A stretch of 64,000 nucleotides of DNA from Octopus vulgaris. Its lineage: Eukaryota. Shown here piece after piece: positions 14,210 through 57,252 of this stretch (its first letter is position 1; each line of letters starts with the position of its first letter). Below the pieces are notes generated by a model. It was given only the letters and a program-made list of their open reading frames with translations. It was not told the DNA's origin and ran no database searches. Made by a program: the position numbers and the translations under genes. Location of the stretch: positions 15,066,001 through 15,130,000 of the forward strand of contig OX597825.1 in the NCBI GenBank assembly GCA_951406725.2, given 5' to 3'.

Positions 14210-14402
14210 AATCACCATGATAGATCGGTAGCCACTACACACATTTCTATTCTCTCCTTGTTTCTTTCTGTGTTCCGTTCTGTGGACGAGCGTAGGCTCG
14301 AAACGTTAATGACCTTTGCAATTCCCGAGCGTTATACAAATACATCTGTTTGTTTTCTACACCAACTGTCTGCGTCGTTTAATTTTTTCGTGGATTCTCC
14401 CT
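14210..14402 (+). mobile_element. Putative Penelope-like terminal fragment in (AT)n with degenerate HHR-like motif
   Basis: gacGAGCgtagGCTCgaaacgtta at 14285-14308; a second copy lies at 18585..18767. Confidence 0.6.
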
Positions 14403-14568
14403 ATATATATATATATATATATATATATATATATATATATATATATATATGTATGTGTGTATATGTATATATATACACAGTTATAGAGGGACACATATAT
14501 ACATACATAGATACACATAGGTATACATATATATATATATATATATATATATATATATATATATATAT

Positions 14569-15027
14569 ATCAATCAATATAAGGGTAACCGCTGGTGGCA
14601 GAACATTTTTCTTGAATTTTTCGTTACCCTTATATTGATTGATTAGTGAATTTTTGACTAATTCTGAAATTTGTATCAGCAGCTTATATTTACTGCGGAG
14701 TAGATGGCGCGATTACGGTGAATTCGAAAATTTACGATATATAGACCCGAGGCTTAGATGGTGTAGCCTCGTGTATATATATCTGCCTCCTATTTTGGTG
14801 ACTTTGCTGACGAGACAAGCCAAGCGTAAACGGATTTAATTTAATTTAATTAAATTTGATTGCGTGAAGATGTTGAAACATTGCAGGGTACAAAGTTTGA
14901 AGGGGATGAATGTTTTTTATTTTCCTCTAGTTTCAGAATTACTACTATTTTTTGCGGTTTTGAGTTTAGCTGCTCTTTTCAAGTGAGTCGAACGACCTTC
15001 TCAGGGTCATTCCTTAATATTTTGTTA
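14569..15027 (+). mobile_element. Putative Penelope-like terminal fragment between (AT)n tracts
   Basis: Begins with a 21-bp perfect inverted repeat (14569-14589/14623-14643) and contains an HHR. Confidence 0.65.
14801..14896 (+). ncRNA. Type I hammerhead ribozyme
   Basis: Stem I actttg/caaagt; core CTGACGA; stem II gaca...tgtt; GAAAC attgcagg GTA cleavage triplet at 14888-14890. Confidence 0.8.
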
Positions 15028-15101
15028 TATATATATATATATATATATATATATATATATATATCTGTAAATGTAATATGTGACAATTATTCGGTAGCCA
15101 T

Positions 15102-15162
15102 GATAAAACTCCGCGTTTCGGATGCTGAGGTGGAAATCCACGCCACCGTCTCTTCAGTTATC
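15102..15162 (-). ncRNA. Type I hammerhead-like motif (imperfect stem II)
   Basis: Minus strand: gataa CTGAAGA gacggtggc-gtggatttccac-ctcagcatcc GAAAC gcgga GTT ttatc. Confidence 0.6.
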
Positions 15163-15303
15163 CGGCCATCGGAAAAACGCTATGAAAAATGACCGTTATA
15201 CAAAGGGAAATTACTGTGCGAATCACCGTTATTAAGAAAAAGAGCTATTCGAATGACCGCTAAGTGAGAGAGTAAAGTGAGGGGGTAAAAAGTTCATAGT
15301 ATT

Positions 15304-16328
15304 CGAAAGGATGAAAGGCAAAGTCGACCTCGGCAGAATTTGGACTCGGAACGTAGCGACAAACGAAATACCTATTTCTTTATTACCCACAAGGGGCTAA
15401 ACATAGAGTGGACAAACAAGGACAGGCGTAGGCATTAATTCGATTACATCGACCACAGTACGTAACTGGTACTAATTTATCGACCCCCGAAAGGATAAAA
15501 GGCAAAGTCGACCTCCGCGCAATTTGAACTCAGACCGTAACGACAGACGAAACACCTATTTCATTATTAACCATAAGGGGCTAAACACAGAGGGGACAAA
15601 CAAGGACAGACATAGGTATTAAGTCGATTACATCGAGCCCAGGGCGTAACTGGTACTTAATTTATCGACCCCGAAAGGATGAAAGGCAAAGTCGACCTCG
15701 GCGGAATTTGAACTCACAACGTAACGACGGACAAAATACTTATTTCTTTATTACCCACAAGGGGCTAAACATAGAGGGGACAAACATGGACAGACATAGG
15801 TATTAAGTCGATTATATTGACCCCAGTGCGTAACTGGTACTTAATTTATCGACCCCGAAAGGATGAAAGGCAAAGTCGACCTCGGCGGAATTTGAACTCA
15901 CAACGTAACGACGGACGAAATACCTATTTCTTTATTACCCAAAAGGGGCTAAACATAGAGGGGACAAACATGGACAGACATAGGTATTAAGTCCATTATA
16001 TCGACCCCAGTGCGTAACTGGTACTTAATTTATCGACCCCGAAAGGATGAAAGGCAAAGTCGACCTCGGCGGAATTTGAACTCAGAACGTAGTAGCAGAC
16101 GAAATACCTATTTCTTTACTACCCAGAAGGGGCTAAACACAGAGAGGACAGACACACGGATTAAATCGAATATACGACCCCAGTGCGTAACTGGCACTTA
16201 TTTAATCGACCCCGAAAAGATGAAAGGCAAAGTCGACCTCGGCGGAGTTTGAACTCACAACTTAACGACAGACGAAATACCGCTAAGCATTTTTCCTGCC
16301 GCGCTAACGTTTCTACCAGCTCGCCGCC
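15304..16328 (-). repeat. Tandem multimer of the SINE family A body (184-bp period) with a single tRNA-like head
   Basis: cgaaa(g/a)g unit starts at 15304, 15488, 15672, 15856, 16040 and 16213; SINE 5' head occurs only at about 16280-16328. Confidence 0.93.
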
Positions 16329-54189: not shown

Positions 54190-55321
54190 TATATTTATAG
54201 CATATGCAACAATCCCATAACTTATATCTAGGATGCATATTTTGAGAGGTTCGCCAAGGTCAACAATTCTTGTAGGGGAATAAGTAATGAATTTTATTAT
54301 ATTAGATTTTTACTTTTAGTTTAATAGACGTTACTCACATTTTATTTCTCTATTCAGGATATTTCTATTCAATTCGTGCTACTCTATTATTTCTGATTAT
54401 GACTCCATCAGTGAAAAGAAAATTATTTGTATATATATGTGTGTATATATATTTCAATGGAAATTACAAAGAATGTTATTCTTGCATTGCATTTGTATGG
54501 AACTGTTCTTCAATAAATAGCATCCCAACGATAAAGCAACAAATGTTTTTTTTTGTTTTTTTGCTTTTTTGCATTTGCTGTATACTTTATTCATATTTTT
54601 CAAATATATTGCGAGATTTCACTTCTTATCAAAATATGCCTCTTAGTATTGTTGTGGATATTTTCTTTTATATTCTTTACTGCTTTTTTTCATTATTATC
54701 ATTATTATTATTTCCTTTCGCTTCAAATATTTGTATGGGTATTTCAAATTTTCCTCTCAGAATGGCAGAAACTAAATTGTGACTTGAAATAAGTGTTTTT
54801 ATATAATATAAAATTTATCAGAATATGTGTTTCTCAGATCCAGTGAGAGGTAGCTTCAGTGCAGTAGTTCTGTCATGTGACAAAATAAAAAGAAATGTAA
54901 TATTTCAACGTACAAATCAGAGAGTAAATATAGGATGTTAAAAAAGGCTCCGTCAATAATGCACGTAATGGAATGGAAAAAGAAGAGCAATATTTGTCAA
55001 ACTGGTGATGCTATCTAGCTATAATATTATATGTATAATGAAAAGAAAATGTGAGACCAGCACGATTTCTTCTCTAGAAATATGATGAAATATTCATTCC
55101 CATTATACACTCAAACTCGTTTGATTTTTTTTTCTTAAAGGTATCTATGATCTAATATCTATCTGCACCGTAATATTCCTTAGATATTTCCCCTTATCTC
55201 ACTCGCTATTCCTCAAAATTCCTCTCGTATCAGTCTTTGTTTACGCTTGTTCATATATTTTCAGTAAAATTTTACAGTAATAAATTAACCGTTAATTGCA
55301 TTAATTTAATAAACTACACAT

Positions 55322-55732
55322 AGGCGCAGGAGTGGCTGTGTGGTAAGTAGCTTGCTAACCAACCACATGGTTCCGGGTTCAGTCCCACTGCGTGGCATCT
55401 TGGGCAAGTGTGTTCTGCTATAGCCCCGGGCCGACCAATGCCTTGTGAGTGGATTTGGTAGACGGAAACTGAAAGAAGCCTGTCGTATATATGTATATAT
55501 ATATGTATGTGTGTGTGTTTGTGTGTCTGTGTTTGTCCCCCTAACATTGCTTGACAACTGATGCTGGTGTGTTTACGTCCCCGTCACTTAGCGGTTCGGC
55601 AAAAACATACCGATAGAATAAGCACTGGGCTTACAAACAAATAATAAGTCCCGGGGTCGAGTTGCTCGACTAAAGGCGGTGCTCCAGCATGGCCGCAGTC
55701 AAATGACTGAAACAAGTAAAAGAGTAAAGAGT
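55322..55732 (+). mobile_element. Full-length SINE family C (CORE-like)
   Basis: ggcgcaggagtggctgtgtggtaag...gggttcagtccc...cttgggcaagtg; aagagtaaagag tail. Confidence 0.93.
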
Positions 55733-56019
55733 ATATCAGACAATATAAACAAAAATGAAACGTAAAATCTAGTGAGTAAATGTCTAAACATTAGGTCAAC
55801 GAGGTAAGAATACCGCCAAATGTATTTTGCATCATGGTTCACTGTCTCGAAGAAAAAACAAATATTGAATATTATAGGTATTGATATTGAATGAGATGAG
55901 AAGACTTTAATCATATGCTTATGATGCAAACACTGGCATATAGCTAAACAATTACTACATCATCGCTGAGTCATGGTTTGGGTTCATTTTATCTTTAATT
56001 GAGAGTGGCTTCAAGTGTT

Positions 56020-56218
56020 GGCACCAAGCCAGCAGTTTGGGAGGAGGGGTAAGTAGGTTACATCGACACCATTTCTCAACTGGTACTTAACTTCTCGACG
56101 CCGAAAGGAAGAAAGACAAAACCGACCTCAGCAGTATTTGAACTCAGAAAGTAAAGACGGATGAAATGCCGCTAAGTAATGTGCCCGGCGTGCTAACGAT
56201 TCTGCGAGATGTCGCCTT
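56020..56218 (-). mobile_element. Degenerate SINE family A
   Basis: actggtactt...atttgaactcagaa...cccggcgtgctaacgattctg. Confidence 0.8.
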
Positions 56219-57129
56219 CAGAGTTCGAACGCTGAAAATAGGCTAATGGTACAGTCGAATAACATTCCATGTTGTAAAGTATTGCAACGTTTATCAGTCT
56301 ATGAGATCTACCAAATTACAGCTTTATTAACTATGATAGTCAATTATTAATCTATCCCAAGATAACAGCATCATAACGAAGAAAAACAAACTACCAAATC
56401 TTCGTATAATTAATAAATATACCATATTAATAAACATATCACTCGGCTCGTGATGTCACGGCACTGGCATGACTATACTCCCCAGATAACTGTACGACCT
56501 AATCAATCAAGCTCATTTCTCACTAAAATCATGATATTCGGTTTCATTTTACATATTTAAAAATGAATAGTTGTGGCTTCGATGCTTTCGCATGTTCTCT
56601 TATTGCAACTGGTCATTAATCAAATGATATTTGCGGCTCAACGAAGTTTAGTATTATTAATTATTAGAAACTTGATTTTAATTCCAACGTAATATCTAAT
56701 ATTCTATGCTGTTTTCATGAAAATCACGTACTTTATTCTTTGTAATATGCTTGAATACTCTTATAATTTGGCCGTTTCCAACATCCAAACATTTTAAGCA
56801 AAGATAGGTTTAGCCAAAGGAGAATCATAAACGGCTTCCTTACCCAAAATATTGTTTAGGTAACAAAAACAAAATATACGTTATATAGATAGATAGAGAG
56901 ATAGATAGACAGATATATAGATAATACACATATAGATACATTCATATGTATGCATGCATATATACATAGATATACATACATTCTGTTATATATATATATA
57001 TATATATATATATATATATATATATGTGTGTGTGTGTGTGTGTGTGTATGTGTGTGTATGTGTGTGTACATATATGTGTATATATATATGTATATATATA
57101 TATATATATATATATATATATATACATAT

Positions 57130-57252
57130 AAAGTTTATCCAAACAAGAAAACACAACAACGCGAGGACATGGAACACATATAGTATTATTGGACGCTCAG
57201 GAAAGAAGGGAAGAATGAGGGTTTAACGTTTCGAGCGGAGCTCTTTGTCTGA
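57130..57252 (-). mobile_element. Putative Penelope-like fragment in microsatellite with HHR-like 3' half
   Basis: Minus strand: cagacaaa GAGC tcc GCTC GAAACG TTA aac. Confidence 0.5.

Follow-up and report, generated by a model that had tools for sequence, protein, structure and literature searches.

A 64,000-nucleotide stretch of the genome of Octopus vulgaris (assembly GCA_951406725.2, contig OX597825.1, positions 15,066,001 to 15,130,000, forward strand; referred to here as the window) contains a series of short inserts that bear type I hammerhead ribozyme motifs. These motifs are genuine, and are found at the termini of about ten Penelope-type families, a known kind of element that lands in TA repeats. 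The reading favoured here, which is given a probability of about 80%, is that the inserts derive by truncation from the ends of Penelope-like elements (PLEs) and of tandem retrozyme repeats devoid of an open reading frame (ORF), likely copied into (TA)n tracts by Penelope enzymes, and that one retrozyme lineage has become the repeated insertion site of a long interspersed nuclear element (LINE), which likely homes to a start of the small nuclear RNA (snRNA) type. Direct observations concern family membership, the ORFs linked to families B, D and G, junctions with (TA)n, inverted arms, the tandem arrangement of units and the covariation of stems, as well as the insertion of LINEs with target duplications and a shared upstream element at position -59.

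Hammerhead motifs and the families that carry them

All 13 motifs that a sequence-only reading of the window had reported as hammerheads are present, at or within about 20 nt of the positions it had assigned to them, and they represent 11 insertions of ten multi-copy families (A to J; Table 1). The motifs at 27889 and 28435 are two units of one 547-nt tandem, those at 42619 and 42780 are the arms of one palindrome, and those at 14285 and 18645 belong to a single family. Since the repeat finder was swamped by microsatellites, a masked self-comparison of the window was used, in which end-to-end alignment between insertions was seen only for the two copies of family E. A type I descriptor, loosened after the motifs had been seen (tolerating one additional base after A9, as many as two ahead of G12, and a stem III that is nearly palindromic), matched the window five times with a canonical core, and none of 60 local dinucleotide shuffles gave a match; when variant cores were admitted (U3-A8, U4C, A6U), seven matches were found against a shuffle mean of 0.07, well above what shuffled sequence yields. 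The motif at 15102, whose stem II carries private changes, is missed by this descriptor. An Rfam scan of the window gave no hammerhead family among the 150 of 164 matches listed, which are microsatellite or palindrome artefacts, and Rfam at gathering score also missed the hammerheads of four retrozyme-bearing loci, so that support for the motifs comes from the descriptor, the genomic copies and the covariation of the stems. When single motifs are folded by free energy, the hammerhead structure does not emerge, as is expected from the weakness of stem III, and such folding was not used as evidence.

The predicted family core, CUGANGA...GAAA...NUH closed by stems I to III, is canonical in families A, B, C, D and I, and carries a U3-A8 swap throughout in G and J; the hammerhead of family G also has a U-U pair at 10.1-11.1. 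The conserved A6 and U4 are not retained in family E (A6U) nor in most copies of F and H (U4C), and these three families are, as judged from their cores, hammerhead-like variants. The division into six complete and seven degenerate motifs made by the sequence-only reading holds only in part. The six complete motifs all exist, but two are altered relative to their families, that at 14801 by a private mismatch in stem III and that at 15102 by private changes in stems II and III. Among the seven, those at 47056 and 51362 are indeed cut off inside the core, whereas that at 27267 is intact with a U3-A8 variant core, those at 14285 and 18645 have the family-wide A6U core (the latter with a private C3A), and 44182 and 57221 belong to the U4C families. 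The inserts listed in that reading are real, but one more truncated family, at 41426-41712, had been overlooked.

The changes U3-A8, U4C and U-U at 10.1-11.1 are known natural variants (PMC3088659; PMC4209133). Family E has U at position 6 in 20 of 20 matched copies, and the exact 27-nt E motif occurs genome-wide in 15,730 copies with U6, with all four bases present at position 7, as compared to 180 copies with A6. No report of A6U was found in the literature searched, and it is not among the variants in the parts of PMC4209133 examined; A6U may be either a working variant or a relic.

Covariation was assessed on J-type hammerheads, as the young families A, B, C and G are too uniform, using 22 distinct natural sequences of equal length taken from 31 distinct variants. 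In this set, 93.8% of cells are paired, a value reached by none of 500 shuffles and compared to 22-43% in slid controls; nine of 14 pairs have changed on both sides, including C3-G8/U3-A8 and the stem III palindrome, and position 10.1-11.1 is unpaired in eight of the 22 variants. Covarying stems are thus present, and on this comparative evidence the J-type hammerhead structure is under constraint.

Penelope-like coding partners

A 4,678-nt unit has family B as its terminal repeat, and within this unit a 954-amino-acid ORF begins 209 nt past the predicted cleavage site. Its protein displays the motifs RWK, DKT, YRDD, CxCX5C, VIY-YLG, CxxC and CxH, lacks CCHH, and has a C-terminal GIY-YIG domain, while searches of Pfam and PDB gave no match. 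Near-identical copies with long open frames exist, as do several diverged subfamilies, and one intact ORF of this type (locus L041) includes asparagine-rich inserts at residues ~480-810 that are absent from homologues of ~700 amino acids. The arms of family G flank an ORF with reverse transcriptase (RT) and GIY-YIG domains in three of four fetched loci, with motifs GxKF, DKG, CX2-5CxxC and CCHH, and dozens of copies are 99% identical. Family D lies downstream of, and in the same orientation as, a decayed Hydra-type RT/endonuclease ORF in three of four extended loci, and the linker and endonuclease are recognizable in a broken copy. From these motifs, B and D are likely of Hydra type, and G of Neptune or Nematis type. 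A Nematis-like label for the family B protein was dropped in favour of Hydra after comparison with the clade motif list, and the Neptune-like label for family G derives in part from RT motifs that are presumably typical of that clade.

The link to ORFs encoding RT and GIY-YIG domains is therefore borne out for B, D and G. Fragments of PLE ORFs near copies of E, H, I and J were considered as partners and rejected as separate insertions; the fetched arrays of families A and C gave no PLE ORF match, and no PLE ORF fragment lies within the window.

(TA)n junctions and genome-wide abundance

Of the insert ends printed from the window, 12 of 12 run into (TA)n. Among 150 non-redundant genomic loci, a biased sample comprising the copies most like the window's own inserts, a (TA)n tract lies no more than 60 nt from the 3' end in 118, as compared to 9% of random positions, confirming the proposed (AT)n bias. 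Half of the 32 loci that lack (TA)n (16) are D and I copies that continue into a longer family tail, and family B is bound to TA in 15 of 15 loci.

At first look, each family of the window had 1,000-3,500 candidates in the 2.8-Gb genome (40 scored per search). The nearest named homologues come from Octopus sinensis and Argonauta, in keeping with an octopus genome. In 40 arbitrary 10-kb stretches, 16 canonical matches were found, seven of them from one array, or 22 with variant cores, and none in eight shuffles; scaled up, this corresponds to roughly 10^5 motifs genome-wide, or about one per 20 kb, which is a rough figure. The density of (AT)6+ tracts is also comparable (70 per 64 kb in arbitrary stretches, 65 in the window). 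The similar densities indicate that the window is typical of the genome and not a special cluster. The large radiation of (AT)n-targeting ribozyme retroelements that the sequence-only reading had proposed is upheld by family copy numbers, by the RT and GIY-YIG links, and by covarying stems. One arbitrary stretch (locus L224:2307-4513) holds another retrozyme array, with a unit of ~359 nt, seven canonical hammerheads and an inverted arm.

Retrozymes and their upstream element

Four families are made up of tandem units that lack an ORF and hold a single type I hammerhead apiece: J (357 nt), K (362 nt, found outside the window), C (482 nt) and A (547 nt). Arrays of A and C bear inverted 5' arms, inverted arms are also seen in J, and J units occur in bulk without any LINE. 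Family A sequence is present in contigs of four of four sequencing runs that are only guessed to be RNA, the contigs carrying neither ends nor strand.

The heptamer ATCAGTG is found at -57 to -59 from +1 in six of six fetched U1 genes and at -59 in U2, and J-type retrozymes carry it at -59 from the site of LINE insertion, so that both element and spacing of the putative promoter agree with those of the U1 and U2 genes. Family K has ACAAGTG at the corresponding place, and family A has ATCAGTA 82 nt before the core, where the ATCAGTG of J stands 84 nt before its core. Families B, C, D and G showed no such element upstream, and neither did six U6 loci, several of which are probably pseudogenes and which have no common upstream element. 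These positions suggest that the retrozymes likely carry a promoter of the snRNA type (proximal sequence element), and that the LINE likely lands at its start. A promoter of snRNA type is also a feature of newt satellite 2.

A LINE inserted in retrozymes

Upstream extension of J copies leads not to a PLE but to a LINE, whose ORF1 has a zinc knuckle and whose ORF2 has APE, RT and zf-RVT domains. Its best PDB match is L1 ORF2p (E 1.7e-66), the homologues found carry no clade labels, and by its domains and sites it is likely a target-specific LINE of L1/Tx1 type. Inside the J unit, the LINE is flanked by a target duplication, mostly 14-20 bp long, and the hammerhead core follows the start of this duplication by 20-34 nt. 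In the whole genome, a strict hammerhead core is present 24-42 nt beyond 57 of the 173 exact matches to the LINE 3'-end motif, as compared to 0 and 12 in reversed controls, and in 19 of the 30 nearest LINE copies a hammerhead lies no more than 90 nt past the 3' end. In loci chosen with a query that contained both parts, the median likeness is 97% for LINE ends and 77% for the retrozymes behind them, and the two are uncorrelated (29 of 30 loci); such alike ends in front of diverse retrozymes point to repeated independent insertion. The LINE is intact and young, and in a 5'-truncated copy (L335) the promoter and the duplication are still in place. A sister subfamily uses the second retrozyme, K, and another enters at the first base of U2 snRNA genes, with one copy in a J-type unit. 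The possibility that family J is itself a LINE with its own hammerhead was dropped, as LINE-free units and target duplications were found.

Composites of LINE and retrozyme also exist. L327 comprises a truncated LINE that runs straight into an inverted retrozyme arm, with a 12-bp duplication flanking the whole at a non-TA site; in L340, a truncated LINE plus retrozyme begins in a TA tract, and L342 is a third, less clear-cut example. These examples, three in 30 loci, suggest that composites have sometimes moved by the retrozyme route, while for most full-length cases a later insertion of the LINE into a retrozyme already in place would account equally well.

Further arrangements were noted for related LINEs. 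At L310-L312 (C3: 20.81-20.84 Mb), a U2 array holds full-length LINEs at +1, such that the downstream U2 stays whole and the promoter passes to the LINE. At L303-L306 (C5: 29.18-29.21 Mb), six head-to-tail copies of a 5.28-kb LINE subfamily have entered what appears to be the 5' end of an older LINE, and no hammerhead is present. At L353, L354 and L356 (C27: 22.9-26.2 Mb), a LINE subfamily occupies a fixed site of a contig-27 repeat, ~25 nt after a TATA-like word, and this repeat had no Rfam match in the two loci scanned. In the window itself, positions 10100-13012 (minus strand) contain two decayed LINE ORF1 fragments that are 30-40% identical to ORF1 of the retrozyme-targeting LINE, interrupted by repeats resembling short interspersed nuclear elements (SINEs).

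Proposed mechanism and alternative explanations

PLEs are known to move by target-primed reverse transcription with a nick made by GIY-YIG, leaving partial tandems and inverted 5' arms (PMC4209133, PMC7229834, PMC8557442), and several PLE clades prefer (TA)n, with Hydra, Neptune and Naiad reported as targeting it (PMC8557442). In the octopus, Penelope RT and GIY-YIG endonuclease would likewise copy elements into (TA)n tracts, the window inserts being short products of such target-primed insertion, and priming on both strands of the self-complementary (TA)n could give rise to the head-to-head arms. Multimeric transcripts would be cut by paired hammerheads and perhaps circularised, since a palindromic helix III implies cleavage as dimers (PMC4209133, PMC7229834, PMC8557442). 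ORF-less families would borrow the PLE enzymes in trans, and the LINE would gain the retrozyme promoter and sometimes be carried along with the retrozyme. A bolder version of this scheme, given somewhat less than an even chance, is a parasitism in three layers, in which PLE-spread retrozymes carry a U1/U2-type promoter, the LINE homes to such starts and not to a sequence, takes the promoter and at times travels inside the retrozyme, and the abundant minimal hammerhead works with U in place of A6.

A number of observations weigh against the favoured reading. Cleavage, transcript ends and circular RNA are predicted only, and the clade names derive from motifs instead of a tree that includes reference elements. 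Families E, F, H and I yielded no coding partner, the PLE ORF fragments close to them being separate insertions. Binding to (TA)n is weak in family J (seven of 14 loci), and family E, on TA in 13 of 19 loci, is not so in the other six and also ends on CA, TG or TATC repeats. The 93.8% pairing in the J-type set comes from hammerheads gathered with a pattern that fixes the core, and the relatedness of the sequences inflates the shuffle test. Among the 30 nearest LINE copies, eight end at other sequence and three lack a 3' end. Finally, other sister subfamilies use starts without the -59 element, namely a TATA-type start, the 5' end of another LINE, and the C27 repeat, so that homing guided by promoters is one way to read the LINE's choice of sites and a drifting sequence preference is another.

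The latter possibility leads to a serious rival for the LINE component, considered a credible but lesser prospect, in which the LINE endonuclease recognises short ATCG-like DNA and the match to a transcription start is incidental. ATCG opens both J-type and U2 targets, and target choice in the Tx1 clade has been credited mainly to the endonuclease (PMC4494074); however, the targets share little past these 4 nt, family K starts with AAGCG, the constant feature is AYMAGTG at -56 to -59 from the duplication start, and other LINE subfamilies enter TATA-type starts (L314). The LINE could also play a larger part than that of a guest, either mobilising the retrozyme-type families (J and K in particular) or owning the hammerhead as its 3' element. 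The youth and intactness of the LINE, the J copies that often do not end on (TA)n, and composite L327 with its 12-bp duplication at a non-TA site would fit this idea, which is nevertheless improbable: retrozyme units abound without the LINE, the LINE bears its own target duplication within the unit and is also found where no hammerhead exists (U2 genes, LINE-LINE tandems), and inverted arms that repeat the 3' end of the element, a PLE pattern (PMC8557442), are present in J.

As regards the hammerheads themselves, there is an appreciable, if minor, chance that many of them, above all those of families with A6U or U4C, are defunct remnants that persist as passengers at the ends of elements. A6C has been reported to cleave at less than 0.1 per min and U4C lowers the rate in vitro (PMC3088659), cleavage by minimal PLE hammerheads is poor even in dimeric form (PMC4209133), and Naiads spread without canonical hammerheads (PMC8557442). 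The compensatory changes in J-type stems speak against this, as does the E group, in which U6 and the rest of the 27-nt motif are kept exactly while position 7 is free, the pattern of a constrained core, although a single founder with later change at N7 could produce the same pattern. The sequence-only reading had also supposed that host transcripts crossing the region could meet self-cleaving sites on both strands, which is unsupported, and a service to the host by such cutting is very unlikely. With a motif roughly every 20 kb, many are bound to fall within introns, and family A offers two intact motifs 546 nt apart on the same strand of the window. Most copies, however, are single, truncated or mutated, hammerheads with a palindromic helix III depend on a second copy and are inefficient in vitro (PMC4209133), the family B palindrome (42.6-42.9 kb) is predicted to fold as a 158-bp duplex that hides both motifs, and the decay of the copies resembles that of neutral repeats. 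A Pfam scan of 99 of the 153 window ORFs (at least 68 amino acids) recognised only a mariner fragment and no host exon or gene, a result compatible with an intronic location.

Features of the window

The inserts are collected in Table 1. The family A arm at 28837-29144 lacks exactly the hammerhead core and stem II, with a 2-nt microhomology at the joint, and is unique to this copy among the loci compared. Apart from the inserts, a 184-nt SINE-like repeat forms a tandem of 5.4 copies at 15304-16347 and occurs in about 15 other places of the window, and two further SINE-like families are dispersed at 25596-26003, 41724-42129 and 55323-55731, and at 13152-13382 and 51081-51310. A mariner transposase helix-turn-helix fragment (PF17906) lies within 30006-30818, enclosed by inverted ends at 30006-30070 and 30754-30818. 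Two tandem 350-nt units at 53491-54180, 87% alike, end at a TA tract, and no hammerhead is found in them by the descriptor.

Table 1. Hammerhead-bearing inserts of the window (positions are those of the window; a dot marks inserts with arms on both strands)
Insert	Position	Strand	Remarks
Family E, short element	14208..14401	+	Minimal hammerhead, CUGUGGA (A6U) core at 14280; 3' end abuts (TA)n
Family C, one copy of ORF-less ~482-nt tandem unit (retrozyme-type)	14571..15025	+	Core 14807; short inverted 5' piece
Family D, end of PLE, likely Hydra-type	15064..15303	-	Core 15157; private stem II/III changes
Family E, second copy	18581..18766	+	A6U core and private C3A
Family G, head-to-head ends of PLE, likely Neptune-type	27012..27389	.	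+ arm intact U3-A8, core 27273; - arm mutated GAAA
Family A, 2.2 tandem 547-nt ORF-less units	27625..28809	-	Intact hammerheads, cores 27958 and 28504; ATCAGTA 82 nt upstream of core
Family A insertion, inverted arm	28837..29144	+	Hammerhead core cleanly deleted
Eleventh family, truncated	41426..41712	-	Hammerhead cut at 5' side; GAAAC at 41665
Family B, palindromic ends of young intact PLE, likely Hydra-type	42470..42901	.	Cores 42702 (-) and 42786 (+)
Family H, short element	44094..44251	+	U4C core (CCGAUGA) at 44185
Family I	46934..47116	-	Hammerhead canonical in family; this copy cut at C3
Family J, 5'-truncated copy of 357-nt retrozyme	51362..51610	+	U3-A8 core; elsewhere target of LINE, likely L1/Tx1-type
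Family F, short element	57131..57256	-	Minimal hammerhead; U4C in family, here further decayed

Significance and comparison with known elements

Hammerhead-bearing PLEs and retrozymes in (TA)n are already known, and what is added here is the retrozyme-targeting LINE and A6U. Known PLE and retrozyme biology is thereby extended to the octopus genome, at roughly 10^5 motifs. A repeat annotation of octopus published in 2026 describes active Penelope and L1-Tx1 families, and the word 'ribozyme' is absent from its main text (PMC13282606). The coexistence of intact young PLEs with non-autonomous partners makes both the mobilisation of retrozymes by PLEs and the purpose of the hammerhead testable in one system, and the A6U family provides a test of how fixed the hammerhead core is. 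If the reading of the LINE is correct, it would be a natural case of a LINE that targets ribozyme retroelements, perhaps by promoter position, with a bearing on how APE-type LINEs switch targets, and it would offer a direct handle on the transcription of animal retrozymes.

Family B shares with Hydra-clade PLEs the RWK and DKT motifs, the CxCX5C linker, CxxC and CxH, the lack of CCHH and the C-terminal GIY-YIG, as well as the terminal-repeat hammerhead, the (TA)n targets and the inverted 5' arms, with family D having the same linker (PMC8557442). Known Hydra-clade elements are generally below 3 kb, in contrast to the 4.7 kb of family B, whose 954-amino-acid ORF is swollen by the asparagine-rich inserts (PMC8557442). 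Among the four occurrences of Octopus in the supplement of that paper, at least two are Naiads. Family G shares with Neptune and Nematis elements GxKF, DKG, the CX2-5CxxC linker, a CCHH-type GIY-YIG and (TA)n targets, and departs from the canonical hammerhead by U3-A8 and U-U at 10.1-11.1, both known in nature (PMC3088659). The minimal PLE hammerheads with palindromic helix III described in metazoans have the same type I geometry, the extra base after A9, the palindromic or absent helix III and U3-A8, and the same mostly solo, truncated copies and opposite-strand pairs, while a family-wide A6U is not among their known variants in the parts of that source examined (PMC4209133).

Metazoan non-LTR (long terminal repeat) retrozymes likewise consist of ORF-less tandem units with one type I hammerhead each, and coexist with PLEs (PMC7229834; bioRxiv 10.64898/2026.07.22.740005). 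The octopus families differ from those in that A and C exceed the known range of 170-400 nt and have PLE-style inverted arms and (TA)n ends, that J, K and A have a U1/U2-like upstream element, and that J and K host a LINE.

As for this LINE, Tx1-clade elements that target U2 or other transposons are known (PMC4494074; PMC8869645), among them Tx1L in Tx1D, Keno in U2, Kibi and Koshi in microsatellites, and Tx1-Mar in Mariner-N4 (PMC4494074), and some LINEs and SINEs use hammerhead or hepatitis delta virus-like ribozymes (reviewed in PMC6765202). No report of a LINE that targets retrozymes or hammerheads, or of a shared site relative to promoters, was found in the literature searched, which was incomplete. 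The octopus LINE has in common with the Tx1 clade its APE and RT, the ORF1 zinc knuckle, a fixed site in multi-copy targets that include U2 and mobile elements, and tandem insertions that sandwich the target duplication (PMC4494074). It differs from the elements described there in that its targets include hammerhead retrozymes, in that its site is U2 +1 and the equivalent position of the retrozyme, and in that its targets share the spacing of a promoter element more than they share sequence.

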